DNA of 64,000 nucleotides from Eukaryota sp. GEM-RC1 (GCA_040285855.1 JAUFOQ010000013.1:868001-932000); one strand, 5' to 3'; positions 2 through 62,620 are shown, counted from the stretch's first letter. The notes: generated by a model not told the origin, from the letters alone. Made by a program: numbers and translations.

Positions 2-562
2 AAGTTGAAACCTAGATTGAGGGAGGTTTTGGAAGAAATTAGGAATGGGTCTGTTAGTGAGGTTAGTCTTGGGAATAACTCTATTGGTACTGAAGGTGCC
101 ATTGCATTGGCCGGTGCTTTGAAGGTCAATTCCACTGTTACTAAGATTGATCTTTGGGGTAACTCTATTGGTAATGAAGGTGCCATTGCATTGGCTGATG
201 CTTTGAAGGTCAATTCTACTGTTACTCAGATTAATCTTGGGTATAACTCTATTGGTACTGAAGGTGCCATTGCATTGGCTGATGCTTTGAAGGTCAATTC
301 CACTGTTACTCAGATTGATCTTAGGGTAAACTCTATTGGTAATGAAGGTGCCATTGCATTGGCTGATGCTTTGAAGGTCAATTCCACTGTTACTAAGATT
401 GATCTTGGGGGTAACTCTATTGGTAATGAAGGTGCCATTGCATTGGCTTATGCTTTGAATGTGAATTCCACTGTTACTAAGATTTATCTTGGGGGTAACT
501 CTATTGGCTCCAAGACTAAACAACACATCAAAAGAATGTCAAATAATCGGATCACGTGCTAA
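2..562 (+). CDS. 3' part of RING-kinase-coiled-coil-LRR gene, copy 1 (RI/NLRC3-like 28-aa LRRs); 5' end lies outside the window
   Basis: Frame is open from the window edge. KLKPRLREVLEE cap plus tandem NSIGNEGAIALADALKVNSTVTxIxLxx units match the C-terminus of 34104-36140. The N-terminal domains are inferred from the paralogues. Confidence 0.85.
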   Translation, partial: KLKPRLREVLEEIRNGSVSEVSLGNNSIGTEGAIALAGALKVNSTVTKIDLWGNSIGNEGAIALADALKVNSTVTQINLGYNSIGTEGAIALADALKVNSTVTQIDLRVNSIGNEGAIALADALKVNSTVTKIDLGGNSIGNEGAIALAYALNVNSTVTKIYLGGNSIGSKTKQHIKRMSNNRITC

Positions 563-6302: not shown

Positions 6303-6364
6303 AAGAAAGTGGGGGAAAACGTCACCGATATTTTTGGACTGCTTATTCCAACTTTCCTCTTTCA
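6303..6364. promoter_or_regulatory. 62-bp intergenic region between divergent G6PD::6PGL and 6PGD; putative bidirectional promoter
   Basis: ATGs at 6302 (-) and 6365 (+). Promoter function is inferred from position only. Confidence 0.6.
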
Positions 6365-8394: not shown

Positions 8395-10368
8395 TTAATG
8401 CTGACCTAAGAAGCAATGGGTCAATGATGAACTATATGGACAGTCACTGCCACGTGTACACGGCACAAACAAGGATTCTAAATTATCTGGCAGACACGAA
8501 TGAGAGAAAGGAGAAGGGCGTGTCGAGAGACCAAACGTTGTCAGTGCACACGCGAAAATATCAAACTCTCGTTGCGAACACGATAGGACGATTCTGTTAA
8601 AATAAGGGCTGAACCATGTACATAAAAGTGAAAGCTGTACATACATTGAGTGTTTTGGATAATGGAAATAGTCCCATAAAGCAGGTGTAATTACTAAAAT
8701 CTGAACACCATGCTTAATACTACTGTAAAAGAAGGTAAATAATCGGTGGAAAACATTTCGAAGTTGTTTAATGCATCCGAAATCTTCAACAGAGGCTCCC
8801 TCCAAGGTGTTACGACGGAATTGAATTACTTCTTCAGCAACAACTGACAATATAGTAACCACGTGGGGTTCTGGAAGTCGATTATAGCAATCAGAAGGAG
8901 GTCCTCGAAATATTTCAACATTTTCAGATACAATCACGTCATCAGTTAAGGGAAACATAAGTGATTGTGGAGTTGACATTCTATCTGAATAGCTAACATT
9001 TCCAGAATCAACAGCAATAAGAAATGAACTTCGTCTGAATAAATCACCATGAAGTGCAGGAGTACCACAAGTATATGACAAAACATGTGGATCTAGAAAA
9101 TTTAAAATACCAATACTGTTGAAATCATCAGTAACTCCCAGCCAATCATCTGACCTACATTGTAGGTTAGACATAGTATCTGACTGTCTACGTGGCAATG
9201 CAAGCGAAGACAAAAAATCAAACGAGTAAAAAGTATTCTCAATTTGAGCCAAAAATCTAAAATATTCATTCTTTTTTAAACTCCTTGACAAATCTTTCAA
9301 GGCCAGTACTTGATAAAACCCAAGCAAAAGCCTAAAATTAGGATACATGGCATAGTGAGTAACACTTCGGAAACCAGTTAATAACTGACCAAGATCAGCT
9401 GAGTTTTTAGACTTTGACCAATCAGAATATTCGCCAAGTTTAGAAAGAAACAACGACTTTAGAGATTGACCTTCAAGTTGTGTGATTTCACTGTTTGTGA
9501 TTTTTGGAGCTAACAAATTTGGTGCGTATTTTTTTAAACAGACCACAATTAAACGTTTCTCCCCCATAACAATCTGACTATTAACAAAATCCTCTTTAAC
9601 AATGTGGTCAGATGCTAGCACAAGAGTATGTCGAGCGCGGTCTTCGAGGAGGACACCTGGAAGTGAATACGTGGCAGTATTGACATTAGGGAAAGGATCT
9701 GCTGAGGATGACGTCAGCACGATTTCATAAAAGTGTGGGTTTAAAAGAGAACCGGAAAACTTCATTGCACTATAGGTCACATCACCAATTGGATAGGATA
9801 AACTAAGGGTCTGTGTATGGTGTGAAGCATCTACACGAAACTCAACATGTACGAAGTTATAGTCTGGAATTTGATGAACTACTTTTTTAAAGTTGATATT
9901 CCTCTCCTGTAAATCGGTTTCAGCAGCAGAAAGAAAATCGGTGAGGTGATCAGAGCGAATGAAAGGAAAACAAGGGGTTTTCGGAGATTGCTTTGGTTGA
10001 GGTTTTTTTGGTGCCCGTTTTTGTTGAGACCGTTGTGGACGACCTCTGTTAGTTTGAGGGGCTGTATGTCGCTGGCCATCAGATTGTCTGATAACTGGCT
10101 GTGGGTGGAACATTGGATTTATGAATGGATTATTTAGTTGAGGAAATGTGGGCTGACCTGGGTTGGCTGGGTAAGTATGATGAGGATATGTTGGAGTAGG
10201 AGAAGTAGGATATGTTGGAGTAGTAGGAGGAAATGTTGGAGTACTATGAGGCGGAAATGTTGGAGTGTTATATACAGGATGTTGATGTACATTCGGTTGC
10301 TCTTGACCTCGACCAAAAGGACGGGTCTGTATAGAACCCATATCTGAATCCGTATTGAAGAGGTTCAT
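8395..10368 (-). CDS. Pro/Gln-rich N-terminus, divergent microbial-type PARG (DUF2263/TIGR02452-like) macrodomain lacking catalytic motifs, C-terminal PBZ-like CCHH finger; paralogue A
   Basis: 657-aa ORF. ILNF...DLFRRSSFL...FPL..DVIVSENVEIFRG..SDCY..LPEP..V.ILSV..HG..ILVI follows the DUF2263 motif order as recalled. Ends in C-x5-C-x7-H-x5-H. Confidence 0.65.
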   Translation of the reverse strand: MNLFNTDSDMGSIQTRPFGRGQEQPNVHQHPVYNTPTFPPHSTPTFPPTTPTYPTSPTPTYPHHTYPANPGQPTFPQLNNPFINPMFHPQPVIRQSDGQRHTAPQTNRGRPQRSQQKRAPKKPQPKQSPKTPCFPFIRSDHLTDFLSAAETDLQERNINFKKVVHQIPDYNFVHVEFRVDASHHTQTLSLSYPIGDVTYSAMKFSGSLLNPHFYEIVLTSSSADPFPNVNTATYSLPGVLLEDRARHTLVLASDHIVKEDFVNSQIVMGEKRLIVVCLKKYAPNLLAPKITNSEITQLEGQSLKSLFLSKLGEYSDWSKSKNSADLGQLLTGFRSVTHYAMYPNFRLLLGFYQVLALKDLSRSLKKNEYFRFLAQIENTFYSFDFLSSLALPRRQSDTMSNLQCRSDDWLGVTDDFNSIGILNFLDPHVLSYTCGTPALHGDLFRRSSFLIAVDSGNVSYSDRMSTPQSLMFPLTDDVIVSENVEIFRGPPSDCYNRLPEPHVVTILSVVAEEVIQFRRNTLEGASVEDFGCIKQLRNVFHRLFTFFYSSIKHGVQILVITPALWDYFHYPKHSMYVQLSLLCTWFSPYFNRIVLSCSQREFDIFACALTTFGLSTRPSPFSHSCLPDNLESLFVPCTRGSDCPYSSSLTHCFLGQH

Positions 10369-11737: not shown

Positions 11738-13501
11738 TTAATGTCGACTTAAAAAGCAATGAGTTGCAGAAGAAGCCATTGGACAATAACGACCATGTGC
11801 GCAAGGTACAAAGAAGGATTCTAAATTACGCGGGTCACAAGTGTAAGAGAAAGACGATGGAAGCATAATGACATCAAACATTGTCAAAATACAAACAAAA
11901 AGGAAATAATCCTCATCAGAACAAGCTAAACGGATCTCGCTAAAGAAGGGACTAAACCACGTGCATAAAACATAAAGCAATGCAAACATTGAATGTTTTG
12001 GATAATTAAAATATTTCCACAAATCAGGTGTAATTACTAAAACCTGAACACCATGCTTAATACTACTGTAAAAGAAGGTAAATAATCGATAGAAGACCCT
12101 GCGTACCTGATCAATATCAGAAAAATCATAAATAGTTGTCTCTTCCAATGTTGTCCTTTGCAACTTAACAACTTCTTCAGCAACAACTGACAATATAGTA
12201 ACTACGTGGGGTTCAGGAAGTCGATTATAGCAATCAGAAGGAGGTCCTCGAAATATTTCAACACTTTCAGATACAATCACGTCATCAGTTAAGGGAAACG
12301 TAAGTGATTGTGGAGTTGTCATTCGGTCTGAATAGCTAACATTTCCAGAATCAACAGCAATAAGAAATGAACTTCGTCTGAATAAATCACCATGAAGTGC
12401 AGGAGTACCGCAAGTATATGACAAAACATGTGGATCTAGAAAATTTAAAATACCAACACTTTTAACTGGATTCGCGATTCCTAGCCAATCATCTGACGTG
12501 TATTCAACGTTGGTCATCAACTCTGCCTGCCTACGTGGCAGTGAAAGAGAAGACAGATTAGGGAAGGAATACACCGTATTCTTAATTTGACCAAGAAATT
12601 TAAAATACTCATTGTTGCGTAAACCTTTAGATAGATCTTTCAAAGCTCTCAGTTGGTATAACCCAAGCAAAAGCCTATAGTTAGGATATAACTGAAAGCG
12701 GGGAATTTGGCGGAAACCAGTTAATAACTGATCCCGATCCTCAGAGATGTTTCTTTTAGAACTTGCCCACTCAGAATACTTACTCAAAGATGACGTGAAA
12801 AGTGAAGGAAAACTTTGATTCCTTAATTCAGGCTTCGAAATCCCTGGCGATGGAGTTTTAGAGTTATACTTTCTTAAACAAACAACAGTCATGGTGTGTT
12901 TTGTCTGTGAAATCGCCGTCACTTCAATTGTAGTACCAGAGTGTTGGTCAGAAACAACACGATCCGAAGCAAGGACGTATAGATTCCTCTGGGGGTCTTT
13001 AACAATGACACCGGGGAGTCCTGTAGAAGTTCTAGGAACAGCCAGATTTCCCGGAGAAAAGGTAAGGACAATTTCGTAGAAGTAGGGTTGTTGAAAAGCA
13101 GGTAGAGGCTGTATAGATCTGTATTGAATGTCTGAGATGTCATGCTTGAGACCCTTGATAGTGTTGAACTGTTGCCCTCCAATAGTCATTTGGAACTCAA
13201 CATGAACGAAGTCATGGTCCACAACTTCTTGAATTGTTCTGGTAAAGACAATGCCTCGTTCAAGTAAAGCAGCTTCGGCGGATACAACAAATTCCTGTAA
13301 GTGATCGCGATGAACAAAAGGAAAACAAGTAGTTCGACGTTGGACATTGTTGGGTTGAGGAGGATATCCAACAATCCTCGGAGAATTATTGCCAGAATTA
13401 TTCGAAATCGGACCTTGTGGGTATGAAGGGTGATATTGTACACGACCAAATGGACGCATCTCAACAGATCCCATATTTACCGACGAATTAAAAGGATTCA
13501 T
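11738..13501 (-). CDS. Paralogue B of 8395-10368 (pseudo-PARG macrodomain plus PBZ-like finger)
   Basis: 587-aa ORF colinear with paralogue A. The core is nearly identical; ends CAHGRYCPMASSATHCFLSRH. Confidence 0.65.
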   Translation of the reverse strand: MNPFNSSVNMGSVEMRPFGRVQYHPSYPQGPISNNSGNNSPRIVGYPPQPNNVQRRTTCFPFVHRDHLQEFVVSAEAALLERGIVFTRTIQEVVDHDFVHVEFQMTIGGQQFNTIKGLKHDISDIQYRSIQPLPAFQQPYFYEIVLTFSPGNLAVPRTSTGLPGVIVKDPQRNLYVLASDRVVSDQHSGTTIEVTAISQTKHTMTVVCLRKYNSKTPSPGISKPELRNQSFPSLFTSSLSKYSEWASSKRNISEDRDQLLTGFRQIPRFQLYPNYRLLLGLYQLRALKDLSKGLRNNEYFKFLGQIKNTVYSFPNLSSLSLPRRQAELMTNVEYTSDDWLGIANPVKSVGILNFLDPHVLSYTCGTPALHGDLFRRSSFLIAVDSGNVSYSDRMTTPQSLTFPLTDDVIVSESVEIFRGPPSDCYNRLPEPHVVTILSVVAEEVVKLQRTTLEETTIYDFSDIDQVRRVFYRLFTFFYSSIKHGVQVLVITPDLWKYFNYPKHSMFALLYVLCTWFSPFFSEIRLACSDEDYFLFVCILTMFDVIMLPSSFSYTCDPRNLESFFVPCAHGRYCPMASSATHCFLSRH

Positions 13502-14788: not shown

Positions 14789-16632
14789 ATGATATCAAAG
14801 TACAGCATCGTTATTTGTGTAATTCAAAATTTGCGACCTTCCAACACCACATTCGGGCAACTTATGAAGACACTCATCCCCAGCATTATCAATGGTTTTC
14901 AATCCTTTGATTATCTCGTCTGTACACATCATGCATCAGATTCATCCATTGATATCAAAGTTCAACCAACCACTGCCTCTTTTCATGTCGTAGTCTACCT
15001 GGACCCCCTCTTTACCATCATTTGTGACTATGTGGATCTTCAGTCTTCGTTCACGTCCGTTATTCAAACAGTCAACAATCTCTCCACAGACTATGACAAG
15101 GCTCTTTCACTGGTCAATCTACTTGTTCAAACCATAGCTTCATTCATTGGTACCAACTTCCGTCCTTTACCTGCCCTTGACGTTCCCTCGAATTCCACCG
15201 ATGGCATATTCTCCTCTTCTGATCTCATGGGTTCTTTTGAAGGATTTGATGACTTTGATGGATTTGAAGAATGCACAGAGGACTATCACTTTTCTGCTTC
15301 TCAAGTGTCTATTCACAACTTAGATTGGATACCCTCTTTTCTCAACTGAAGTTTGACCACACCATACCGAAGTTCTCTATTGGAAAGGAAGTCCACATCT
15401 CCATTAGAGTCAACGTGGCCAACTACATGTCCTCCTTTCATATGAAAATCTACGGACTTGAATCTCTATTTGAGTTTGTGTTAATTCTAGGATGTTTTGA
15501 GTCGGATGCTATTACACCAACTATCAGAGTTTGCTCTGACGACAGACCTCAAGTAGAGCGACTGCTGTGTAGACGTATTTCACAACAATTGAAAACCATC
15601 ACGTCAGCAAAGGGATCACGGATCGACGATTTGTTCATTTCTGGACTCACTGTTGTTATTGAAGAAGAATGTCAGAATGTGGCAGATCGTTGTTCTATCT
15701 GTGATATATTATTGTCAAGCCAAGGTCTCAGTTCAGGTCCTAAACTTACATATTGCGATAATCTAGCGTGTGGCTTTTCCTTCACTGAACTAGGAGTCTG
15801 CTTTAACGTAATTGAAGAGATACAACGGAATGGAACAGCAGTTGAGTTGCTCTTGTCATTTGCGTATGCTGCGTTATCTTCTTCTGGCTCTCACCGAGAA
15901 CGGTTATTTACTTCGTGCCCAACAGACTTTCTGGCTAGTAATGGGACTGCTGATTTCTCAAAGCTGTCCTCGGGATTAAGTTTGATTCCTCCAATTCAGA
16001 GTTTACGGAAGGTGTCTTCTGATGGAGAGATTCGGAAGACATTGGGACCAGAGAACTTCAGACTTTTGCGTTATATCATTGCCACTAATCGTAGTTTTAT
16101 ACTGAGCGTTCCATCAACTAGTAAGTACTACCTCTCTGGATTGGGCGGGGATCAGTTTTTGATCTCGTCAGCAGATCCTAAAAGGGAAGTTAAGTTTCAA
16201 CAAGCTTGTCAACAATACGGCTACACGTGGGCCTACCACGGGAGTCGTTCCTGTAATTGGTGGAACATCATTGGATTGAATCAAGGAGTCAAGAACCTTT
16301 CTGGAACTACTCTGCAAAGAAATGGAGCTGCCCATGGACCAGGTGTTTACCTCAGTATAACTCCTGGAACTGCTTGTAGTTATGGTGGTGGTTTTTCTCC
16401 AAGACCAGGAATTTCTAATATATCTTCTGGATCTGCAGTTGTTGTTTGTCAAATAGTCAAAGCTCCGGAGTACAATTCTTGGGTTAAGTCTAATAGTTAT
16501 CTGGTGATTCCCAATGATTTCTATGTTCTACCTCGGTATTTTGTCATCAATTGTAACTCTTCGGGAAATGTTGGCAATATTAATACCACAAATTTTTGTT
16601 CTTCCGAAGTTTTGAGTGAGTTGTTTACATAA
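14789..16632 (+). CDS. PARP6/PARP8-like (mono-)ADP-ribosyltransferase; ORFs 14789-15349 and 15271-16632 joined by a -1 shift or short intron
   Basis: CSICD...CDNLACGFSFTELGV C4 motif; YHGS..NWWNII; NLSGTTLQRNGAAHGPGVYLS; YLVIPN..VLPRYFVI. Start codon uncertain. Confidence 0.85.
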
Positions 16633-17419: not shown

Positions 17420-19316
17420 ATGTTGATCGACGTTCACGTGATTTGGAATTGTATGGGCGACTTTTAAGTGGACTTTATAGAAGCATCTTAATTGAATCAG
17501 TTGATGTATTCTCTTCATTTGCCAGTGATTCCTCTTTAATTGAACCCTATTTTCAATTCTAAGAGTATTACAGAACTTGTTCTACGGAAAATACTTGATG
17601 AGCCTTTGAAATCAAACATTTCTTTTAAAAAAAACTGATTGTTGCAAGATATGCGTCTTTTTTTGTTTTGTTCCAATAAATTCTTCTCTGGTGGAATTAG
17701 TAGTAAGTACCTGTTACAACAGGCTTTTAAGATTTGATAATCTTGAATCACAATCCTTTGTCAAAATGTTAGAGCTCAACACTAGTTTACTTGTTTCAAC
17801 TGTTGATGGCCCACAATTAAATTCTAGTCAATTGAAAACCATTCTCGATGCTCTTGAACACAATACGGTATTAAAGAAAGTCAGTTTTCCTTATATTAAC
17901 TTGAGTTGCCTAGTAGTACTGTTTCAAAAGCTGTCATTTACTAAATTTTCAACAATTATTGATGTTTCGCCACACACTGTAGATCTCTCTCTTGGTTACA
18001 TTCACTTTGGGTCTGATCGATATGACCAGTCAGACGAAGATCAGTTGGACACAATTTTAAATGCTGTACAATCAAATGTCCCTATTAAACGTATTAATTA
18101 CCCTGGTTGGAAGAATGCAACCTTTCTTCAACTTATTTTAATATTTAAAATTTTATCTCTTAACAAATAAATTTTTGATGTCAATTTGCCTTCCCATTCA
18201 ATGGATGTTGACAATGGTCTGTTTTCATGCTCACACCCTTCCTTTGATTATCCTAATTGTTCAGCTTTTGTGCAAGATTTTTGCAAAGCCACAATATCAA
18301 AAGGCTTATCCTTAAAAATTGTATTTTTAATCAGTCGACTTCTACTTTATTTGACTTAATCAAAAACAATACCACGTTAACTTTTTTTGGAAATAAGCCA
18401 CGCTAAACTATCTAATGACTTGACTTTGGAATTGTTCTCGACAGTTAAAAGGAATTTTGGTTTAAAAGAATTCCGCTTTATAAGTAGTTACATATCACTT
18501 ACTAATCTTGTAATATTTTATGATGATTATGCTATTGGTTTGAAATGTCGTGTTGATCGTGATCCTTATTCAATCGATGTCGCACGTGATTCAATTTTTT
18601 CTGTTAGTAGAGCTCATTGTTCCGATTTGACGTGTCTCTGGTATGCTTTAAATACAGGATCTTCTATTAAACGAGTTGATTTTCGCTGGAAGGACCCGAC
18701 TTTCGAAGAATTTTTAGCAGTGTTTCAAATAATGTCCATTGGTCGTTCAGTGCTCGGTTTTGATTTATCGCCACACTGTATCGATTTTGATAATTGTCTT
18801 TATTGTTTTGCACCAGACAAGTCTACATCAATAACAAAAGGGGTGGCGTCATCGTTAGAGTTCTCGTTGCAGTCTTTTAGTATCAAAGAGTTTACTCTTA
18901 ACAGATGTCGTTTTAATCACAAAGAAATCAATAAGTTTTGTGATTGGATTAAAGATCAACATTCCCTGAATTCGATTGATATGAGCCATTGTGAAATATC
19001 TGATGATGATCCTGTGCACATTTTGAATTCAATATCAGGTCTTACAGTATTGAAATTTTTAAAAATGATTAAATATTCAATTGGTACTAAGGGAGCCATT
19101 ACCTTATCAGAGTTGTTAAAGAATAATTCGACGATTGTACTCATTCATCTTCAACACAACTCTGTCTTTAATGAAGGAGCTATTGCTATATCTGAATCTT
19201 TGAAAGTTAATTCACTAATAACTGAAGTTATTCTTAGGGGAAACCCTGTTGATCCCGCAACTAAGCAATCTTTCAGTAGAATTTCAAATAATCGTATCAA
19301 ATGGTCGTTCTGGTGA
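17420..19316 (+). pseudogene. Degenerate or fragmented LRR protein gene of a second family
   Basis: ORF pieces 17691-18170 and 18387-19316 share internal SPHxxD repeats. The C-terminus has RI-like LRRs (EGAIAISESLKVNS..ISNNRIK). The pieces are separated by stops and shifts; the 5' boundary is approximate. Confidence 0.6.
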
Positions 19317-34103: not shown

Positions 34104-36140
34104 TTAGAACGTGATCCGATGATTTGAGATTCTTTTGATGAGTTGTTTAGTCTCAGAGTCAATAGAGTTACCCCAAAGATAAATCTCAGTAACAGTGGAA
34201 TTCACCTTCAAAGCTTCAGCCAATGCAATGGCAGCTTCATTACCAATAGAGTTACGCCAAAGGTCAATCCGAGTAACAGTGGAATTCACCTTCAAAGCAT
34301 CAGCCAATGCAATAGCACCTTCAGTACCAATAGAGTTTTCCCCAAGATTAATCTCAGTAACAGTGGAATTGACCTTCAAAGCATCAGCCAATGCAATGGT
34401 ACCTTCATTACCAATAGAGTTACCCCAAAGATAAATCTGAGTAACAGTGGAATTGACCTTCAAAGCATCAGCCAATGCAATTGCACCTTCATTACCAATA
34501 GAGTTACCCCGAAGATCAATCCGAGTGACAGTGGAATTGACCTTCAAAGCATCAGCCAATGCAATGGCACCTTCATTACCAATAGAGTTACCCCGAAGAT
34601 CAATCCGAGTGACAGTGGAATTGACCTTCAAAGCATCAGCCAATGCAATGGCACCTTCATTACCAATATGGTCATCCTTACGAATCCAATGATGGTTATT
34701 CAGTCTAACCTCTCTAGCTGAACCATTCCTCATTTCTTCCAAAACTTTCCTCAATCTGGGTTTCAACTTACTCAAACCAATCTCATAATTACTATTAAGT
34801 TCCCTTTTTAAAGGTATTTCTTGTTGTAATTTCTTTTTTGGCTTTGGAATTAAACCTTGAGAACTTCCAAAAGAAGGTGCAATAGATTTGTGCGAATTTT
34901 GATTATTAGGAGAGTTGCATTGTAAAATTGCCGATTTGAGATGTTGAATTTCTTCTCTTAATGATTGATTGTCAACTTCCAAATTTAAAATTTGTTGGTT
35001 AGAAGACTTTTCCCTGTCGTGAAGCTCATTGTTTAGAGTAGATAAACTTTGAATTTGATTGAAAAGTTCAGAATTTTGACGTTTCAAGTTCAAAACTTCA
35101 TCACTGAGTTCATCAACTTTAGTTTTCAAAGATTGATTTTCTTCAATCAAAAATGATTGGTCATTAATAACACCACCAGCTTCCAAAACATCCAAAGTAT
35201 ATAAAATATCAGTGATTTCATTAATTTGAGGTCGTAATGATGGATCTGGATTTAAACACTTCATTATTATCTCTTTCAAACATTCTGGTGTTGAATCATC
35301 AAAAGGTAATGGTTTGCCTTGAACTTTTGCTCCAACAATCTGCATCATTGAATAACCAGCAAAAGCTTCTCGCCCAGTTAAAAGTTCATATAGTATTAAT
35401 CCAAGTGAATAAATATCACTAAAGGGACTAGCATTTGATTCAAACTGCTCAGGGGCAGCATACTTGGGACTCATGGCATTTGCTCTAGTCACTAGAGTTG
35501 TGGCGGCGAGGTTCTTGGAAGTGCCAAAATCCGCAACTCTTACATGGTCGTCAACCAAAAGGACATTGGCAGGCTTCAAGTCTCCATGTACAACAGACTT
35601 GAGATGGAGGAACTTCACTGCCTGGCAAAGTTCTTTAGCGTACCTAACAGTAGTTGGAGAGAGAAGACTTGGGCAGGGGGAGGGAGAAGAAGCTAATTCC
35701 ATGACGATACCAATGGAATCAGCAAAGAAGGTGGTACCAAACACACGTAGAACAGCAGGATGATTGAGATTGAAGAGAAGATTCATTTCTCTCTGGAGTT
35801 CTATGCGTCCTTTCTCTGTGAGGGAGACCATCTTGATGGCGACAGAGAGATCGAACCATTTGGCGGAGTAAACGTCAGCAAAACCTCCCTCCGCGATCTT
35901 ATCTCCGAGAACGATTTGATCTGAGGGGATTTGTGGACAGAGTTCACCATCGCGAGATGCCTTGACCAGGTCCTGTAGCGCATAGTTTACTTTCCTATCT
36001 TCAAGACAATCGCTACGACAAAGGGGACATTGATTCAAGGACTCTGAACATTCAGAGCAACAGGTATGTCCTTCAGAGCAGATTAGGAGGGGAACACGGT
36101 TAGAGAGATTAAACGATTCACAACAAACGAAGCAGTCCAT
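34104..36140 (-). CDS. RING finger-protein kinase (TKL-like)-coiled coil-LRR protein, copy 2 (intact, 678 aa)
   Basis: CFVC..CSEGHTCCSEC..CPLCR; IAEGGFADV, HGDLKPANVL, DFG, YAAPE; heptad region; 28-aa LRR units. First ATG at 36140. Confidence 0.93.
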   Translation of the reverse strand: MDCFVCCESFNLSNRVPLLICSEGHTCCSECSESLNQCPLCRSDCLEDRKVNYALQDLVKASRDGELCPQIPSDQIVLGDKIAEGGFADVYSAKWFDLSVAIKMVSLTEKGRIELQREMNLLFNLNHPAVLRVFGTTFFADSIGIVMELASSPSPCPSLLSPTTVRYAKELCQAVKFLHLKSVVHGDLKPANVLLVDDHVRVADFGTSKNLAATTLVTRANAMSPKYAAPEQFESNASPFSDIYSLGLILYELLTGREAFAGYSMMQIVGAKVQGKPLPFDDSTPECLKEIIMKCLNPDPSLRPQINEITDILYTLDVLEAGGVINDQSFLIEENQSLKTKVDELSDEVLNLKRQNSELFNQIQSLSTLNNELHDREKSSNQQILNLEVDNQSLREEIQHLKSAILQCNSPNNQNSHKSIAPSFGSSQGLIPKPKKKLQQEIPLKRELNSNYEIGLSKLKPRLRKVLEEMRNGSAREVRLNNHHWIRKDDHIGNEGAIALADALKVNSTVTRIDLRGNSIGNEGAIALADALKVNSTVTRIDLRGNSIGNEGAIALADALKVNSTVTQIYLWGNSIGNEGTIALADALKVNSTVTEINLGENSIGTEGAIALADALKVNSTVTRIDLWRNSIGNEAAIALAEALKVNSTVTEIYLWGNSIDSETKQLIKRISNHRITF

Positions 36141-36264: not shown

Positions 36265-36825
36265 GTTTTATGAGGTCAATCTTTTCAAATTTTTGTATTT
36301 TCACTGTATGGATCTTTAGGTGAATCTGCAACATCATTACTTTTTTTTGGAGAGAATCATTTTATGGAACAAAAACACTAATATAAACACAAATACTAGA
36401 ACTCAATATCGTTAAAGCAACAATCATTGCCATCAAAACTCACATCAGCTTTTTCTTCATAAAAAACACTGAGTGCTAATAGAGCTTTTGAAATCATGAT
36501 AGGAATTGTTTTAAATATAGTAAAAACAATACGATTCAACCAAAATTTGAAATCAAATTTCTTGTTCACATTCTACATCATTACTTGAAATCTTTGTGAA
36601 GATTGTAAAAGAAAAAACATCTAGGACTTTTGATCTTAGATTTTGGAAAAATCGAATCGTGTTTGCTATCTTTAAAGGTATGGTGACTTCTGTATCTAGC
36701 GCTTTATTATCTCTTGGCAGACATTATGAAGATAAGGTATGTGAAAATTTCTAGTTAGGCAATCTGGACTTTGAGGATCTTGATTATTATATGTGTGTAC
36801 ACTGTAGTGTTGTTGTCAATAAAAC
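36265..36825 (+). mobile_element. 3' remnant of an RLE non-LTR element, interrupted by an antisense fragment
   Basis: FVFSLYGSLGESA (about 36292-36330) continues after about 36590 as FVKIVKEKTSRTFDLRFWKNRIVFAIFK; ends in aataaaa. Confidence 0.65.
36358..36590 (-). mobile_element. About 230-bp 3' end of the retroelement family seen at 2134-3165
   Basis: High nucleotide similarity to 2136-2340 (ttttatggaacaaaaacactaa...aaaaacaatacgattcaaccaaaa). Confidence 0.85.
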
Positions 36826-37740
36826 TTGTCAATGGAAAAAACAATCTTAATCTACAAACATTCAAGGATTTTTCTTCCTTACCTTAAAATCTTCGGCATC
36901 TCATTTATCAACCGACAATCTAGACCTTATGGTCTTCATCTCAATTATGACGCTTGGAAACTTAACATGTGTTTTCGTTTAGGTCTATTTCCGTCTAATT
37001 TCTTAGATAATACAATGTGTTGCTGTGATAAAAGACCGAAAGCTGACTTCAACCACGTTATCAGTTACATAAAGTTTTTCAGTTCAAATCGATTTTAGAT
37101 AATAAAGTTTGTGACGTTATGTATGAAATGTTGAAATTGTCACGGTTTTAATGAGAAAATCGAACCTCTTATTAAGCATTATAGTAATGATAATTTTACC
37201 AATTCTCGACGAGGTGATCTCATTGTATCATATCTTGATTCTTGTCAAGCAGTGATAGATTGTATTACTGTTGATCCTCATGCAAAAGTCTCTTTGAATT
37301 TAGTTTCGAGTGACTCGGAAAATCATTTATCCAAAGCTGAAAAAAAAAGATTGAAACATATTCTGACAGAATGAACAAACTGAATTCCATTTTTTATTCA
37401 TCTTTGAAATTCATTCCATTCGTTATATCAATTCTTGGTAACAATGGAAAATGCTACTGAAAATTCCTTTGATGTTTCTTCAAAATTGTGTCGAGATGAA
37501 ATGAAGAATATCAATCAGACTCTTTGGCGCAATCGCATTGTTTTATCTTTATATAGAAGTTTCCCAAAGTGTTTGAATCGTATACTGGACGAATTGTATT
37601 GTGATAGTTCAAGATTAGATGTAGATCATTTAATATCTTTTAAGTTAGTTTTTGGTTAGTGTACATTGTACGTGGTCAGTTTTAAGTACTACTTTAAGTA
37701 GAAGTTTGTATTTCATCAATTTGTGACATAAATCAAAAAG
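36826..37740 (+). mobile_element. Decayed 5'-truncated RLE non-LTR retrotransposon
   Basis: RPYGLHLNYDAWKLNM.FRLGLFP, CCCD..FNHV, IEP, RRGDL and LWRNRIVLSLYRSFPK, homologous to 38220-39383, with stops and shifts. Confidence 0.8.
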
Positions 37741-37880: not shown

Positions 37881-39435
37881 CTAAATGTTTTCTGATTGGT
37901 AAGCGGTTTGCGGAACTTATGTATGGTGAGCAATCTATCCAGTTTGTGGACTATAACACTGAAGCTGTCCGTTTTTTGGGTTCCTATTTTGGCAATCCTT
38001 TGCAGATTGAGAGTGTGCTCAAGAATTATCTTCAGAAAATCAAAGTTCAATTGCAGACTATACAAGATCTCAAGATCGATAACCACTTGGCTTTTTCAGT
38101 ACTTTCGGTCTGTTTTGGATCGAAAATCAATCATCTTCTTAGATCTTTACCACCTGAGCTTTCTCTTGGTTTTGCTCGTGAGTTCAACTCTTTGAGAACT
38201 CAATTTTTAGGGAATTTGGTTGAAATCAATAGTTCCAAAATTCCTTATCATGCCTTTTCAGTTCAAAATTTGGTGGTGTTGGTTTTCAAGAGCTGAGTAT
38301 TTATGTAAAAGTGCTTTCGTTGGTGGTATGAAGAACTTTCTTTTTGAGAGTAAGCTTCGGTTCGAAAATATTTTCGATTCAGTTGTAGACGGCTCTTACG
38401 CTTTATTGAACTCTTTGGAGGACTTAGTTCAAGGTTTGCCTATTGAAGTTTGGAACAAAAGTTTCCCGAAAAGTGTTTCATCTATTCCTGATCGGTCAAT
38501 TGAATTTCTACCTCTTGCTGTAGTTAAGTTACAGAATGCTACATTACTTGGGTTGGAAGGTAAAAGACTTAGTGTGACTAAGATTGATAATCCCGTCTTT
38601 GCAGATTTTTTATGTGACATTCAACAGTGTTCTAGCTTCATCACTCAACAACCTAGACCTTTTGGTTTACATTTGAACAATGATGCTTGGAAGCAAAATA
38701 TGCGTCTTCGTTTAGGTTTATTCCCTAGTGGTTTGCTAAATAATTCAATCTGTGTTTGCGATAACCGATCTACAGCCACATTTCGTCATGTCGTTAGTTG
38801 TAAGAAATTTTTGCAATTTCGATCTGTTCTACATAACGCTGTTCGTGACGTTACTTATGAAATGTTCAAATCCTACAATTATAGTTGTAAAATTGAACCT
38901 CTTCTGAAACATTATAGTGACAATAACGTGTTTGATTCTCGGCGTGGTGACTTAATTGCTCCTTTCCTGGATTCATCTCAAGTTGTGGTTGATTTTACTA
39001 CAGTTGACCCGTTTGCAAAAGTCTACCAAGACTCCATATTGAATGATTCGAATGGTCATCTGGAAAAGGCTGAACAACGAAAGTGTTCAAATTATGCGGA
39101 TGCTTTGCAGAAGCTTAATGAAAATCTATATTCTAAGTTTTCATTTGTTCCATTTGCCATTTCAATTTTTGGTAACATTGGTCCAGCCGGTTTAAAGTTT
39201 TTCAGTGATTTTAGTCTTTTATGTCGTTCTAATGGCAAGGTGTTTAATAGCGCTCTATGGATTAATCGAATTATGTTCGCTCTTTATAGAAGCATTCCCA
39301 AGTATTTATGTTCCATTTATTCGAAGTTGTATAGGGACAATTTTCGTGTTGATGTGAAGAATTTAACTTCTTTCATTTTCTGAATTAGTATGTATTAATT
39401 TATTGTTGCAAATAAACTCTTATATAACAATAAAA
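37881..39435 (+). mobile_element. 5'-truncated CRE-like non-LTR retrotransposon (end of RT, thumb, CCHC, RLE)
   Basis: VRFLGSYFG (RT motif-7-like), INHLLRSLPP, (KF)GGVG, CVC..RHVVSC, HNAVRD, IEP, RRGDL, VVDFT. Possible short TSD aaactac (37874-80, 39433-39). Confidence 0.85.
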
Positions 39436-44740: not shown

Positions 44741-46501
44741 TCATATGATCCGATTATTTGAGATTCTTTTGACGAGTTGTCTAGTCTCAGAGTCAATAAA
44801 GTTAAAACCAAGATCAATCTTAGTAACAGTGAAATTGACTTTCAAAACGTCAGCCAATGAAATGGCACCTTCAGTACCAATAGAGTTACCCCCAAGATTA
44901 ATCTCAGTAACAGTGGAATTGACTTTCAAAACGTCAGCTAATGCAATGGCACCTTCAGTACCAATAGAGTTACCCCCAAGATTAATCTCAGTAACAGTGG
45001 AATTCACCTTCAAAGCATCAGCCAATGCAATGGCATCTTCATTACCAATATAGTTAAACCGAAGATCAATCTTAGTAACAGACCCATTCCTCATTTCTTC
45101 CAAAACCTTCCTCAATCCAGGTTTTAACTTACTCAAATCAATTTCATAATTACTATTAACTTCCCTTTTACAGGTATTTCTTGTTGTAATTTCTTCTTTG
45201 GCTTTGGAATTAAACCTTGAGAACTTCCAAAAGAAGGTGGTGCAATAGACTTGTGAGGAATTTGATTATTAGGAGGGTTGACTTTTAAAATTTCGGATTT
45301 AAGATGTTCATTTTCTTCTCTTAAGGAGTGATTGTCAGTTGTCAAATTTAAAATTTGTTGGTTGAAAGACTTTCCCTGGTCATGAAGCTTATTGTTCAGA
45401 GTAGAAATACTTTGAATTTGATTGACAAGTTCAGAATTTTCACGTTTCAAGTTCAAAACTTCATCACTGAGTTCATCAATTTTAGTTTTCAAAGATCCAT
45501 TTTCTTCAATCAAAAATGATTGGTCATTAATAACACCATCAGCTTCCAAAACATCCAAAGTATTAAAAATATCAGTGATTTCATGAATTTGAGGTCGTAA
45601 TGATGGATCTGGATTTAAACACTTCATTATTATCTCTTTCAAACATTCTGGTGTTGAATCATCAAAAGGTAATGGTTTGCCTTGAACTTTAGCTCCAACA
45701 ATCTGCATCATTGAATAACCAGCAAAAGCTTCTCGCCCAGTTAAAAGTTCATATAGTATTAATCCAAGTGAATAAATATCACTAAAGGGACTAGCATTTG
45801 ATTCAAACTGCTCAGGGGCAGCATACTTGGGACTCATGGCATTTGCTCTGGTCACGAGAGTTGTGGCGGCGAGGTTCTTGGAAGTGCCAAAATCAGCTAC
45901 TCTTACATGGTCATCAACCAAAAGGACATTGGCAGGCTTTAAGTCTCCATGTACAACAGACTTGAGATGGAGGAACTTCACTGATTGGCAAAGTTCTTTG
46001 GCGTACCTAACAGTAGTTGAAGAGAGAAGACTTGGGGAGGGAGGGAGAAGAAGCTAATTCCATGACGATGCCAATGGAATTATCAAAGTAGGTGGTACCA
46101 AACACACGTAACACAGCAGGATGATTGAGATTGAAGAGAAGATTCATTTCTCTATGGAGTTCTATACGTCCTTTCTCTGTGAGGGAGACCATCTTAATGG
46201 CGACGGGGAGATCGAACCATTTGGCGGAGTAAACGTCAGCAAAACCTCCTTCCGCGATCTTATCTCCGAGAACGATTTGATCTGAGGGGATTTGTGGACA
46301 GAGTTCTCCATCGCGAGAGGCTTTGACCAGGTCCTGCAGAGCATAGTTTACTTTCCTATCTTCAAGACAATCGATACGGCAAAGGGGACATTGATTCAAG
46401 GACTCTGAACACTCGGAGCAACAAGTATGTCCTTCGCAGCAGATGAGGAGGGGAACACGGTTAGAGAGATTGAACGATTCACAACAAACGAAGCAGTCCA
46501 T
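44741..46501 (-). CDS. RING-kinase-coiled-coil-LRR protein, copy 3 (4 LRR strands; two frameshifts in the assembly)
   Basis: Colinear with copy 2. Breaks occur at the C-run region (about 46033-46045) and at A4 versus A5 (45166-45169). Confidence 0.85.
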
Positions 46502-50700: not shown

Positions 50701-53468
50701 GAGGGCATCTAGAATTGAAGAACAGAGGGAAAGAGAGGTGGAATCATCAGGGGAGATAGAAGAGATCAAATTGATTGCAGTGATGACGATTGGAGAAATT
50801 TGATCACGTAGGGTCTTAGGTGATGATAGCTGTTGGAATGAATCAGTGAAAATCGGAAACTTCTCAATCAAATTTGATAGGTCCAGCTTATGAGTGGGAT
50901 TGCCCCATACAGAAAACGAGCTGTTCAACCGATATGGCAACTTCCACATATAATCACTCTGAGCTTCACTATCAATCAATCTCGAAACAGGTGACAGTCC
51001 ATTCACCATTGCTCCAACCATATTCAGGGATATCCCCAACAACATTCTTCTTTCAGAGATTGACACGTCAACAGAAGAATTAAACAAGGAGATACCTTCA
51101 CAACACCAGTTCAAGAGGGATTCACAGAGTTTTAAAACTTCTGAAATGGTTTCTTCACTGGGACTGTAAAAGTCAACACAAGTCTCTGAGAAACATCGAG
51201 ACCTTACGTAACCACCAATCTCTGCAGGATGTTGGTTATTAACTGTAGGTCTACATTCCTGTGGATACGAACATAGCAGTGAGTATAAGGCGAACCTAAT
51301 ACAAGAAACAGATTCTTGCTGAATAGCGGGATTAGAACTCTTTAAAAATCCAGAAACAATCGCAACAATCCTTGGCATCTCCTTTAATAGCATCTTCCCT
51401 CCACTTCTAGTTACAAGACCATTCAACACTGCAATGTAGTAGTGGCTAGAGTCCTCCGCTCCTAGAAATACTGGTCTAGTTGAAGAGTGCTCGTAGAAGA
51501 GAGGTTTACGTTGACTGGAGAGAGCGATTTGAGAGGGGAGGAGGAGGTCTGTGGTACGATCAAATATTCTGCTTTGAATGAAATTTAAAATTTTGGGAAT
51601 TGAATAATCTGGGTTTTTAAAACAGACTGCGGAAACAAGTGCCGATAGTGCACCAAAAGGATCCTCATAAACTATATTATTCTTTAAGAAATCAAAAACA
51701 GTGTCAAAACATCTCTTGTAAAGATCATCATCAAGTCCTTGAAAAATCACGTCAACAAGCCCCTCAAAGGTAGAATCTGATGGGATCTCTCCTACTCTGA
51801 CTAGAACACATAGACGGGAGACGATGTCAGGAATAAGAGACCTCAGACCATTGACAAAGTCAAACCAAGGAGTATTGTTGGTGATTGAGTTGTGATTTGC
51901 AACTGGAATTCTAGCGAAGATGGACAAATACATTTTCAACGCATTCAGACACTTCTTAGAATCTACCGGATCTATCGCAACAAGGCAATCGTTACATATC
52001 TGACCAAAGATCTTCCACGTAGTAGCTTCATCTTCCTTTCGTCCCTCCTTGTTAAGTTGGTCAAGGTATCTTAAGAGAGGCTGTACAGTAAAAGACATGA
52101 GCATTAGACTGGCAGGAACAAGGTGAGGTTCTTGCAGGGCAAGAAGAGACTCCTGAATCGTAGTTAGAAGTTTGGGAATGACAACGTTTGGTTGGAGTTC
52201 AGCAAGATCACTTAGAGAGAGGAGAGCGTCATGAGAAAGAGAGGAAGAGCGAGCATAGACGGCCGTGATGAGACCTGGGTAGAGATCGATGGCAATCTCA
52301 GTAATAACAGAGGAGTCAAGATGGTAGTTATCAGGAGATGGAGGTGTGGAAAGACGAGTGGTAGATTAGGTTTCCCTGCCCACCTTTTCTCTACCCACTC
52401 TTTTGTTAAGTTGGGAAGTAAAGGTGGAGAGCAGATCTCCAATGGATCGTGACCAGTGACCTTCTGTTTGAGGATGAAGGAAAGGCTTAATGACTTTGAT
52501 GAAGTGTTTGAAGTGAGATAAATGGAGAGAGGATATAGAAGGAGGTCTCAGAGCATAGGCTAACCAAGATCCAGCAGCTTCAAAGAACATTGCGGCCTTT
52601 GTAGACACAGAGAGGAAGCTGGAGTATGAAGACTCTAGTTTAGGGGAACGTGATCCTTTATCCGAAAGAGGAAGGTGGAGGAGGTGGAGGACCTTCATCA
52701 TGATTGTTCCAAAGTAGGGCTCCCAATCAAATGTTGGTCTGCTCTTAGCAAGGCGGTAGAGGAGAGACATTGTAAGAATGTGAGGTTCAAGAGCAGTCTG
52801 GTCAGAGAATTCCCAGGATTTAAGAATGAGAGGAACGTAAGTTATCTCGGGTTCAATGAACTTTCTAATTCTGGTGGGCTGAGGTTAGAAGACGGGAATA
52901 TACAAACAAGTAAGACACAGAGGAAGCCATGGGCTTGATGATGTTTAGTATCAAATGGGCAGAATAGGGGTGTGAGGAAGTCTAAGATTTGTGAGGGAGA
53001 GTCTTCAGTGAAGAAGCGAGTGATCGCAGGGAAAAGTGACATTATAGAGTTGGAGACTGATCTGGGTAAGGCAGCGTGATAACGAGAGAATCGGGAGAAG
53101 GCATAGCGTTCAGCAAGATCATAGCAGGCTTTCCAATCAACAACGAAGTCGGTATCAGCTGGTACTGTACCTAGAAGATCGGAGAAGAGACGGCACAGTG
53201 CTGATAATGATTTGTGGTCTTGTTCAGGATGTTGGATCAGATCCCAAACCACATTGAGTATTCTAGGGGCAATTTCATCAGGAATGGGACATTTGATATA
53301 AATGAGAAGATCGAGTCGTTGCATCCAGAACACCAGAGTGTCACGGAAAGCCGACGTCGCCAAACACCACGAAAGACCATCGCAGCACTCTTTAAATGTG
53401 TTTGGAAGATCCTCTGTGAGACGATCCTGTAGATGTGAAGGAAGACCTAGTGATGCAGAGTAGAGCAT
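47782..53468 (-). CDS. PSME4: Proteasome activator PA200/Blm10 (fragmented into about 8 ORFs)
   Basis: FLHPQTEGHWS, AIDPVDSKK, LSVHPYLSVRETAQ; C-terminal RHAGCLGLASIILAFPYEVPEFLP...FWKTH...HFTEEEL...HYV (HbYX-like end). Confidence 0.88.
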
Positions 53469-58713: not shown

Positions 58714-60637
58714 ATGGACTGCTTCGTTTGTTGTGAATCGTTCAATCTCTCTAACCGTGTTGCCCTGTTAATCTGCTGTGAAGGACATACTTGTTGTTCT
58801 GAATGTTCAGAGTCACTAAATCAATGTCCCCTTTGCCGTATCGATTGTCTTGAAGATAGGAAAGTAAACTATGCTCTGCAGGACCTGGTCAAAGCCTCTC
58901 GCGATGGAGAACTCTGTCCACAAATCCCCTCAGATCAAATCGTTCTCGGAGATAAGATCGCGGAAGGAGGTTTTGCTGACGTTTACTCCGCCAAATGGTT
59001 CGATCTCCCCGTCGCCATTAAGATGGTCTCCCTCACAGAGAAAGGACGTATAGAACTCCATAGAGAAATGAATCTTCTCTTCAATCTCAATCATCCTGCT
59101 GTGTTACGTGTGTTTGGTACCACCTACTTTGATAATTCCATTGGCATCGTCATGGAATTAGCTTCTTCTCCCTCCCTCCCCAAGTCTTCTCTCTTCAACT
59201 ACTGTTAGGTACGCCAAAGAACTTTGCCAATCAGTGAAGTTCCTCCATCTCAAGTCTGTTGTACATGGAGACTTAAAGCCTGCCAATGTCCTTTTGGTTG
59301 ATGACCATGTAAGAGTAGCTGATTTTGGCACTTCCAAGAACCTCGCCGCCACAACTCTAGTGACTAGAGCAAATGCCATGAGTCCCAAGTATGCTGCCCC
59401 TGAGCAGTTTGAATCAAATGCTAGTCCCTTTAGTGATATTTATTCACTTGGATTAATACTATATGAACTTTTAACTGGGCGAGAAGCTTTTGCTGGTTAT
59501 TCAATGATGCAGATTGTTGGAGCAAAAGTTCAAGGCAAACCATTACCTTTTGATGATTCAACACCAGAATGTTTGAAAGAGATAATAATGAAGTGTTTAA
59601 ATCCAGATCCATCATTACGACCTCAAATTAATGAAATCACTGATATTTTATATACTTTGGATGTTTTGGAAGCTGGTGGTGTTATTAATGACCAATCATT
59701 TTTGATTGAAGAAAATCAATCTTTGAAAACTAAAGTTGATGAACTCAGTGATGAAGTTTTGAACTTGAAACGTCAAAATTCTGAACTTTTCAATCAAATT
59801 CAAAGTATATCTACTCTGAACAATGAGCTTCACGACAAGGAAAAGTCTTTCAACCAACAAATTTTAAATTTGGAAACTGACAATCAATCCTTAAGAGAAG
59901 AAATTGAACGTCCCAAATCCGAAATTTTAAAAGTCAATCCTTCTAATAATGAAATTCGTCACAAGTCTATTGCACCACCTTCTTTTGGAAGTTCTCAAGG
60001 TTTAATTCCAAAGCCAAAGAAGAAATTACAACAAGAAATACCTGTAAAAAGGGAAGTTAATAGTAATTATGAAATTGGTTTGAGTAAGTTAAAACCTGGA
60101 TTGAGGGAGGTTTTGGAAAAAATGAGGAATGGGCATGTTACTCGGATTAATCTTACGAGTAACTCTATTGGTACTGAAGGTGCCATTGCATTGGCTGAAG
60201 CTTTGAAGGTGAATTCCACTGTTACTCAGATTAATCTTGGGTTGAACTCTATTGGTAATGAAGGTGCCATTGCATTGGCTGAATCTTTGAAGGTCAATTC
60301 CACTGTTACTCGGATTGATCTTGGGTTTAACTCTATTGGTAATGAAGGTGCCATTGCATTGGCTGATGCTTTGAAGGTGAATTCCACTGTTACTGAGATT
60401 GATCTTTACAGTAACTCTATTGGTAATGAAGGTGCCATTGCATTGGCTGATGCTTTGAAGGTGAATTCCACTGTTACTCGGATTTATCTTCGGTGGAACT
60501 CTATTGGGAATGAAGGTGCCATTGCATTGGCTGATGCTTTGAAGGTCAATTCCACTGTTACTAAGATTGGTCTTAGGGACAACTCTATTGACTCTGAGAC
60601 TAGACAACTCATCTCAAATAATCGGTTCTTCTGCTAA
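58714..60637 (+). CDS. RING-kinase-coiled-coil-LRR protein, copy 4 (6 LRR strands; frameshift at about 59170-59181)
   Basis: ORFs 58714-59208 and 59234-60637 are colinear with copy 2. Confidence 0.87.
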
Positions 60638-61639: not shown

Positions 61640-62620
61640 CTGTGAAAATTATAAAAACAAAGAAATAATACTAAGATTAAATCCAAACCACTTCATCACC
61701 ACCCGGTAAAAGATTACGTTTATCAACATTAATCTTCGCACCAAACTTGAACAATTTCCCAATTAATCGAGAGAAATAGATATGCATATTCCGATATATG
61801 GAAAACACTATACGGTTTTTCCATTCAGCCATTCTAAACTTACGCTTCTTTTCTTTACACAGTTTGAAAAGAAGCTGCAAAAAGCTGTTAACGGATTAAA
61901 AGAAGAATCTAATATCCCACTAACACAAGATTTGTTACAAACATCTACTGTAGTAAAATCCATGAATGATTGACTCGATTTATGCGACGGAGTATGGAGA
62001 TCCCCTCTTTTTGATCAGTAAATTGATTTTCTGAAAGATGATTCAAAACTGGTTCAACTTTAGAGTGAAAACCATGTGCTTTAAACATGGAATAACAAGA
62101 ATCACGTACACCAACAGTAATTACTGCACGCAGATGAATAAAATATCGACAATTAATTAAATGACGAAAAACACCATTAGCTCCACAAGAGCACGTTGAA
62201 TAGTTTAATAAATTTGCAGGCCAAATAGCCAAACGAAGACGCATATTGATCATCCAAGCCTCATCAGATAGATGTAATCCATACACCTTTGGAATTTGAG
62301 AAATAAATCCAGAAGGTCCACTATTACAAAGCTCCATTAGAAAAGCAGCGAACTCGGGACTATTAGTTTTAGCCAAGCTAATACGATTATTAAAGTCCAT
62401 GAGTTCATACTCCGTTGTCAATTTATTTTGCAGCTTACATACATCAGACGATAGAGATGAAAAATTTTTTTAGAGGAGTCTCCTTAAAATGAGCAGGGAA
62501 CAAAGATTCCCACATGTCAGGAGACAAGGATGATACCAAATCTTTAGCAGATTGAATCCAACGGCAATTACTGGAATTCAACAGATTGATTCCATCCAAG
62601 GGAAACCGTTTCAAAAATAG
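61640..62620 (-). mobile_element. Decayed 5'-truncated RLE non-LTR retrotransposon
   Basis: QIPKVYGLHLSDEAWMINMRLRLAIWP, CSCG..RHLINC, KVEP and WKNRIVFSIYR, homologous to the other fragments. Confidence 0.8.

Follow-up and report, generated by a model that had tools for sequence, protein, structure and literature searches.

A stretch of 64,000 nucleotides (nt) from Eukaryota sp. GEM-RC1 (GCA_040285855.1 JAUFOQ010000013.1:868001-932000), referred to here as the window, carries four copies of a gene family in which a RING finger, a protein kinase and a coiled coil precede an array of leucine-rich repeats (LRRs). We interpret it as a multi-copy family in which recombination would homogenise the LRRs while selection diversifies four residues on their predicted binding face, and which probably provides an inherited cytosolic repertoire of sensors against foreign proteins, with kinase and ubiquitin output. 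Copy B is the sole whole open gene of the family in the window. The features are listed below, the four-letter codes giving the residues at the four variable sites of each repeat unit.

2..562, + strand: copy A, 3' end of a paralog truncated by the window edge, LRR part only; six units (ESGN, KDWG, QNGY, QDRV, KDGG, KYGG)
34104..36140, - strand: copy B, intact RING-kinase-coiled coil-linker-LRR gene, single open frame of 678 residues
44741..46501, - strand: copy C, paralog with two frameshifts; four units (KDRF, ENGG, ENGG, KDGF)
58714..60637, + strand: copy D, paralog with one frameshift common to C; six units (RNTS, QNGL, RDGF, EDYS, RYRW, KGRD)
36018..36134, - strand: copy B RING-HC zinc finger, residues 3-41; ligands C3, C6, C21, H25, C28, C31, C38, C41
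35205..35912, - strand: copy B protein kinase, tyrosine-kinase-like (TKL), non-RD, residues 77-312, from Pfam Pkinase and motifs
34917..35156, - strand: copy B coiled coil of 80 residues (329-408), one helix in the AlphaFold model
34782..34916, - strand: copy B disordered linker, residues 409-453, predicted local distance difference test (pLDDT) score <50
34614..34781, - strand: copy B N-cap helix and degenerate first repeat, from sequence and AlphaFold model
34110..34613, - strand: copy B, six 84-nt LRR units (RDRG, RDRG, QYWG, ENGE, RDWR, EYWG), the last being the C-cap
34605-07, 34599-601, 34593-95 and 34590-92, - strand: copy B variable codons of the first unit, recurring every 84 nt

The 84-nt units were taken from a six-frame motif scan whose hits were filtered by eye to four arrays. 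All four copies were located at the positions given in an initial annotation of this DNA, and the 14 strand sequences it had listed are all present. The arrays comprise 22 units (18 internal and four terminal caps), six each in A, B and D and four in C. With the register V1 T2 x3 I4 x5 L6 x7 x8 N9, the variable sites are x3, x5, x7 and x8 of the motif LxxLxLxxN. Protein identity among the 18 internal units is 91% across the 24 scaffold positions, 15 of which hold a single residue only, versus 25% at the four x sites, where 4, 5, 5 and 11 different residues are seen. As a result the 22 units display 20 distinct four-residue codes. Entropy reaches 1.98, 1.88, 1.88 and 2.86 bits at x3, x5, x7 and x8 and no more than 1.23 bits at every other site; the variation is thus concentrated rather than evenly spread, as had been proposed. 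Tryptophan, tyrosine or phenylalanine occupies 14 of the 88 variable sites, and arginine 13.

The scaffold was first described as near-invariant, which holds for its protein identity but not for every codon. Codon 13 is dimorphic for N and T (12/6), codon 21 for D and E (residues D/E/G/Y), and codon 25 shows a silent dimorphism (GTC/GTG, 11/7). Among 55 distinct near-scaffold units of 24 relatives, those encoded in the window included, diversity (pi) at codon 13 is 0.69, marking it as a weaker fifth variable site. Silent diversity is also not reduced: synonymous diversity (piS) of the scaffold, 0.093, is similar to the proportion of synonymous differences (pS), 0.05-0.14, seen among B, C and D in their non-repeat parts.

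Selection on the four sites stands out against this background. Non-synonymous diversity (piN) is 0.436 there and 0.043 in the scaffold, and a tree-free minimum count over the four codons yields 24 non-synonymous and 2 synonymous changes (binomial p=1.4e-5 against all 12 silent changes). A purpose-written codon model with two fixed classes gave a non-synonymous to synonymous rate ratio (omega) of 7.2, 15.0 and 5.4 at the four sites on three trees, with 0.4-0.6 for the scaffold. Using the five a-priori sites of xxLxLxx, which avoids post-hoc choice, the values are 5.5, 9.8 and 4.1. Omega therefore lies between 4 and 15, and omega=1 is rejected in six of six tests (p<=1e-6), which bears out the non-synonymous excess noted initially. 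The four-fold site of L6 (CTT), adjoining x7, is unchanged in 22 of 22 units, making a local mutation hotspot unlikely, and no stop occurs among the 88 variable codons. Nearly every codon at a variable site is one base away from another codon seen there, as expected for point mutation kept by selection and spread by exchange.

Structural analysis suggests where these residues lie. The array has the 84-nt period, a Pfam LRR_6 match (E=7.8e-25) and the defining features of 28-29-residue ribonuclease inhibitor (RI)-like repeats, an LxxLxLxxNxL motif and a beta-alpha solenoid. AlphaFold models of the array (pLDDT 86, strands and helices alternating) and the whole protein (pLDDT 83) place predicted strands on x3-I4-x5 and put x7 and x8 into the following loop. 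Fold matches include NOD2 (template modelling (TM) score 0.83-0.88), NLRX1, ribonuclease inhibitor, RanGAP and axonemal LRR proteins. According to the passages available from PMC8226289, the x positions of LxxLxLxx together make up the exposed concave face, and RPP1 specificity resides at positions 5, 7, 8, 2 and 3. Combining this published rule with secondary structure, and not with measured exposure, the four sites are predicted to occupy the concave strand and adjoining loop of an RI/NOD2-like solenoid, in agreement with the concave-face assignment of the initial annotation.

The head domains are supported by Pfam and PDB matches, the AlphaFold model and complex prediction. The C3HC4 RING has its eight ligands in the right spacing, retained in most paralogs; its PDB matches are weak (E 0.003-0.64), yet 24 of 24 are RING E3 ligases. 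Among B, C and D the proportion of non-synonymous differences (pN) in the RING is 0.014-0.021 versus a pS of 0.23-0.33, and pN is likewise below pS in the kinase. The latter matches Pfam Pkinase (E=2.8e-39), has STY46, TAK1 and NEK7 as look-alikes and carries VAIK (K103), E118, HGDLKPAN (185-192), DFG (204) and APE (229) as a non-RD enzyme; of its glycine loop the central glycines alone are retained. Hydrophobic residues fill 67% of the a/d positions of the coiled coil, which is predicted to form an in-register parallel homodimer: the complex score was 0.55 versus 0.26 for the best control, with 100% contact agreement between runs and pLDDT >=87. In microbes 21 of 30 known homodimers and 0 of 23 monomers attain the mark used for this score, compared with 17 of 29 and 0 of 30 in eukaryotes, with the caveat that coiled coils may pass through likeness to solved ones. 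In copy B a hydropathy scan, with no dedicated predictor, found no hydrophobic segment (best 19-residue mean 1.49).

Copies C and D have both lost 2 nt in a C-rich kinase tract (46031-46047 in C, 59168-59184 in D), and C has a second lesion, a 1-nt loss at 45163-45174, ahead of its array. Each of these frameshifts could be genuine or stem from homopolymer error. Purifying selection acts on RING and kinase even where the copy is frameshifted, which implies that the lesions are recent or artefactual. Four deposited models (P0002, P0003, P0004 and P0125) omit part of the same C-rich kinase hinge (compare window 59168-59184), and this repeated skipping suggests recurrent slippage or recurrent sequencing error at the tract. 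In models P0003 and P0125 the frameshift is bridged by a 25-nt intron that does not fit the window's two clearest introns (29 nt, GTTTGT...YTAAY-N3-AG), and a 29-nt candidate at 45160 (-), terminating in GAG, could span the second frameshift of C.

The arrays themselves bear the marks of exchange. B, C and D are mosaic paralogs, in which 30 consecutive sites unite C and D before 12 unite B and D; the 39 runs observed compare with 58.8 after shuffling, and 0 of 10000 shuffles gave so few. The frameshift shared by C and D falls within the tract in which the two agree. All four gametes occur at 23 of 36 site pairs no more than 33 nt apart, the variable sites assort independently (association absent in six of six pairs), and the four codons are about as diverse within genes (0.38) as between them (0.39). 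Together these three observations indicate that the repeats behave as one pool. Relatives outside the window show similar reshuffling: P0029 and P0127 have heads 98.5% identical and a single code in common, the arrays of P0058 and P0128 differ by one repeat, and repeat number changes between paralogs. The sequence data fit germline shuffling plus selection, in which unequal crossing-over and conversion would reshuffle the binding surface in the germline.

The closest named proteins belong to Skoliomonas, a metamonad, and carry the labels Eukaryota sp. GEM-RC1, TZLM1-RC (presumably S. litria) and TZLM3-RCL; the organism of the window is likely a skoliomonad, a free-living single-celled anaerobic flagellate. 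As described in the parts of PMC11316075 available, the skoliomonad isolates GEM-RC, TZLM3-RCL and S. litria are free-living bacterivorous metamonads from soda lakes; the words 'leucine-rich', 'LRR' and 'kinase' do not occur in the available text of that paper, nor LRR terms in its searchable supplements (one image-only file aside). We found no published description of a RING-kinase-coiled coil-LRR family or of one in this lineage in a literature coverage that lacks most subscription journals.

RING, kinase and LRR co-occur in at least seven GEM-RC1-type models, and a search with the RING-kinase head, covering proteins of near length only, returned 10 matches, all from GEM-RC1. Heads and tails are exchanged. 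The LRR cassette also stands behind BTB-BTB heads (P0058, P0128) and RING-B-box-coiled-coil heads (P0029, P0127), while the RING-kinase head also precedes a SPRY-like domain (P0131, atlas score 0.97). On a tree built from 32 selected heads, those with LRR tails are intermixed with those bearing SPRY tails (with no formal test). In distant relatives, Anaeramoeba included, the RING-kinase head is followed by TPR, UBA, ARM, ankyrin, SH3, TLDc or PCMT domains. The kinase is RD in 0 of 31 aligned skoliomonad heads versus five of six named Anaeramoeba heads. P0316, a transcriptome protein, combines RING, RD kinase and irregular LRRs, so the domain order is not unique. P0268 carries a RING-kinase head and then near-identical TPR repeats varying at a few positions, which may be an instance of this strategy in a third species, on a different scaffold.

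The strongest support for the regime being maintained is an independent replicate in TZLM1-RC. Its proteins P0260 and P0397 have the same architecture, heads 96.7% identical and arrays of unequal length. They use another homogenised scaffold, and the same four sites rank top (pi 0.75-0.92), with 18 codes in 18 units.

The four-site pattern is recurrent in sequence comparisons, not peculiar to the window. The same positions, often joined by x10 and codon 13, lead the variability within arrays of Mortierellaceae (11 of 14 proteins usable), NACHT-LRR proteins (15/15), bdelloids (five of seven usable) and other eukaryotes (7/8); vertebrate NLRC3 (19/19) varies over all exposed sites. Metagenomes contributed 24 loci, of which the eight with at least four consecutive units were analysed and 16 left out. 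One array (L003/L004; L003:1757-2500), a homogenised 28-residue LRR on GC-rich contigs, has a piN of 0.60 versus a scaffold piS of 0.06; L001, L002, L006 and L007 are weaker (ratio 1.4-1.5), and L005 and L008 lack the signature. The DNA pattern of the window's own scaffold had 0 matches in metagenome contigs. An array relative was confirmed in none of four candidate viral contigs, and viral fold matches span the kinase or the LRRs, never both (best query TM 0.34 among the 50 matches listed).

The regime itself is known from Podospora HNWD and Ectocarpus ROCO proteins, so that the initial annotation had implied too much uniqueness; architecture and lineage appear to be the new part. In Podospora anserina the HNWD/NWD NLRs (het-d, het-e, het-r) share near-identical repeats and concerted evolution within and between genes, as passages of PMC4986451 and PMC12222747 describe. 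According to the same passages, HNWD and fungal NLRs with highly conserved ANK or TPR repeats also share repeat-number change, four selected binding-face codons and combinatorial heads; they differ in using WD40, ANK or TPR repeats, with no LRR found in fungal NLRs, and in a NACHT/NB-ARC switch that is absent here, where a RING and kinase form the head. The HNWD criterion of concerted evolution plus diversifying selection at few codons also describes the window family. Within its genes protein identity is 84, 84, 76 and 83% (scaffold 93-94% in three copies and 83% in C), values slightly below the HNWD threshold published as >85% across >=100 residues.

Similarly, the LRR-ROCO proteins and LRR-kinases of Ectocarpus combine four positively selected concave residues with a signalling enzyme in clustered genes, but have one exon per repeat and, in the shuffled class, a Roc-COR GTPase (passages of PMC3341825). 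In the window family uninterrupted C-terminal 28-residue RI-like repeats follow RING, kinase and coiled coil. LRR-ROCO membership was rejected: Pfam finds no GTPase domain, and the arrays are continuous open frames. Highly variable plant NLRs such as RPP1 and RPP13 vary at the same x positions of LxxLxLxx (5, 7, 8, then 2, 3), aromatics included, as available passages of PMC8226289 report; they vary by position among alleles and need NB-ARC, whereas here repeats are near-identical and no NTPase is present. Membership in the NLR/STAND class was discarded, as no NACHT or NB-ARC Pfam family matches and RING, kinase, helix, linker and LRR fill the model wholly.

Other systems resemble the head more than the array. 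Arabidopsis KEEP ON GOING (KEG) unites RING, kinase and repeats in one chain (passages of PMC5385374), a resemblance in domain content; its repeats are ankyrin and HERC2. With RING and kinase present but ankyrin and HERC2 absent, the window family is not a KEG. The Giardia Nek/Protein 21.1 family expanded kinase, repeats, coiled coil and RING in a metamonad, but there the repeats are ankyrin, the kinase is a Nek, the RING is C-terminal and the TKL group is missing (passages of PMC3218828). Four-site hypervariability was not found for either family in the passages of PMC5385374 and PMC3218828. The nematode F-box and MATH-BTB families, TRIM proteins and the F-box/BTB/RING-LRR proteins of Parachlamydiaceae pair a constant ligase head with a fast-evolving substrate tail under birth and death, as far as passages of PMC4334554 and PMC4209131 go; they do so without a kinase, and the chlamydial ones are secreted effectors under purifying selection. 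Sister genes of the window family are BTB-LRR and RING-B-box-LRR, as in such ligase-adaptor families. Membership in TRIM/RBCC was ruled out for the window family, where the kinase occupies the place of the B-box; P0029 and P0127 do qualify. Lamprey variable lymphocyte receptors (VLRs) are somatically assembled, extracellular and membrane-anchored. They too vary on the concave LRR face (cited in the passages of PMC3341825). Copies in the window are not VLRs, for the N-terminus is a zinc finger and the best 19-residue hydropathy is the value given above. The genes in the window are already assembled, and the initial comparison with lampreys went too far, as nothing points to somatic assembly.

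How such a protein might work can be outlined. Four to 13 repeats with four free residues each would create a variable binding surface, and the coiled-coil dimer would carry a pair of RING-kinase heads on one end and a pair of LRR arms on the opposite end. A foreign protein bound on the concave face could then cluster dimers and activate the non-RD kinase, while the RING would ubiquitylate the bound target or the receptor itself. The putative targets are viral proteins or those of intracellular bacteria or prey. Ligand binding, both enzymatic activities and a role in defence are suggested by analogy.

Several observations weigh against this reading. Of the three heads in the window only one is free of frameshifts, and truncation affects several deposited paralogs. 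RI-like LRRs include ordinary axonemal and regulatory proteins, which head the fold and PDB lists. The RING matches Pfam Sina_RING at E=8.7e-4, under the cut-off (19.8 vs 29.3 bits). The non-RD kinase is common to heads with non-LRR tails and may be inherited history instead of a mark of immunity. Both recombination and a post-hoc selection of sites can raise omega artificially (its lowest estimate is 4.1), and the DNA sample is small, with 22 units from a single assembly. Finally, a hydrophobic C-terminal stretch ends P0023 and P0030 (weaker in P0011), so not all paralogs are soluble; the cytosolic location first proposed, with no membrane helix, fits copy B but does not extend to these. P0011, P0023 and P0030 are kinase-LRR paralogs, and their tails are possibly anchors to a membrane, e.g. 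of the food vacuole.

Instead of microbial defence, the arrays might serve to tell self from non-self among cells of one species, or act in a genetic conflict inside the cell, such as one with retroelement proteins; we regard this as unlikely. In the passages of PMC12222747 the closest evolutionary match, Podospora HET-D/E, works in allorecognition, and retroelement-like remnants lie no more than ~2 kb from copies A, B and D. Against this, we saw no gene in the window that co-varies as a partner; the remnants lack Pfam or PDB matches, and repeats make up 48% of the genome of a named relative, so their proximity is weak evidence.

Ordinary substrate receptors of a lineage-specific ubiquitin and kinase network, diversified to act on many of the cell's own proteins, appear rather improbable. 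KEG regulates endogenous proteins with RING, kinase and repeats (PMC5385374, in passages), Giardia has its expanded kinase-ankyrin-coiled-coil-RING proteins (PMC3218828, likewise), and in Anaeramoeba the heads come with SH3, ARM, TLDc and PCMT domains. Stable targets, however, should fix the binding face, whereas near-identical paralogs share almost no codes; moreover, arrays vary in length and many copies are broken.

It is highly unlikely that diversity is programmed within a lifetime, be it through cassette conversion, a diversity-generating retroelement or repeat splicing at the AG/GT of each repeat boundary. The free assortment of sites within 18 nt could be read in this way, broken copies could be donors, and deposited model P0001 equals the array of copy A minus one repeat. 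A diversity-generating retroelement was rejected because there is no adenine bias (polymorphic A columns 3/19, G 8/22, C 5/14); in GCA and GAA the silent A sites show no variation. A Pfam scan of three remnant open reading frames (ORFs) found no reverse transcriptase family, no cassette layout was seen, the arrays being complete uninterrupted open frames, and the repeat junction mismatches the pattern of the two clearest introns. Without adenine bias, cassettes or an intron-like junction, a programmed mechanism is not indicated.

Neutral drift at free surface positions of conversion-homogenised repeats is more remote still. Many 28-residue arrays do vary most at these positions, but drift predicts the omega of 1 that all six tests reject, and the equally exposed x2 and helix-face positions barely vary, while NLRC3 varies at all exposed positions. 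Long-read errors are expected in homopolymer tracts. The frameshifts sit in such tracts and may be accounted for by sequencing error, yet the chance that error in collapsed repeats made the variation itself is negligible, as substitutions are confined to codon positions 1-2 of four codons, the 22 units contain no stops or indels and the pattern recurs in a second species.

To our knowledge, the recognition of viruses, symbionts or toxic prey by free-living heterotrophic protists is poorly understood. As an inherited sensor repertoire, the family would be a concrete candidate recognition system in a metamonad lineage, bearing the signature seen in immune receptors of fungi, algae and plants but joined directly to kinase and ubiquitin outputs without an NLR switch. 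It suggests that homogenising a scaffold while diversifying four residues arises repeatedly in eukaryotes, and a near-perfect natural 28-residue scaffold with four free positions offers a ready design for binder libraries. A bolder and quite doubtful extension is that skoliomonads possess NLR-free intracellular immunity, with one hypervariable LRR cassette on three ligase heads (RING-kinase, TRIM-like and BTB); short conversion tracts from a pool spanning the chromosome, broken copies included, would reshuffle the cassette continually, fast or targeted enough for clonal lines to differ, which would amount to anticipatory immunity.

The window contains further features. Decayed ORFs at 2179-2712 (-), 36360-37660 (+), 37919-39383 (+) and 61945-62400 (-) resemble the zinc-knuckle and restriction-like endonuclease end of non-LTR retrotransposons; three were scanned with no Pfam match, and one had no PDB match. 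Positions 2137-2340 match 36360-36563 at 92%. Another LRR subfamily is represented by a broken or intron-split gene at 17766-19316 (+), with a few degenerate repeats and a similar C-cap. Tandem paralogs at 8395-10368 and 11738-13501 (-) share 77% identity over ~1 kb and have proline/glutamine-rich N-termini and no Pfam family, and 15271-16632 (+) encodes a PARP16/ARTD15-like protein (Pfam ARTD15_N, E=1.9e-5, just under the cut-off). At 4151-7830 a fused glucose-6-phosphate dehydrogenase/6-phosphogluconolactonase gene lies head to head with 6-phosphogluconate dehydrogenase, bringing the oxidative pentose phosphate pathway into one cluster. The two 29-nt introns, at 7152-7180 (+) in 6-phosphogluconate dehydrogenase and at 52879-52907 (-) in a PSME4-like gene, have a branch point and 3' site that look fused.

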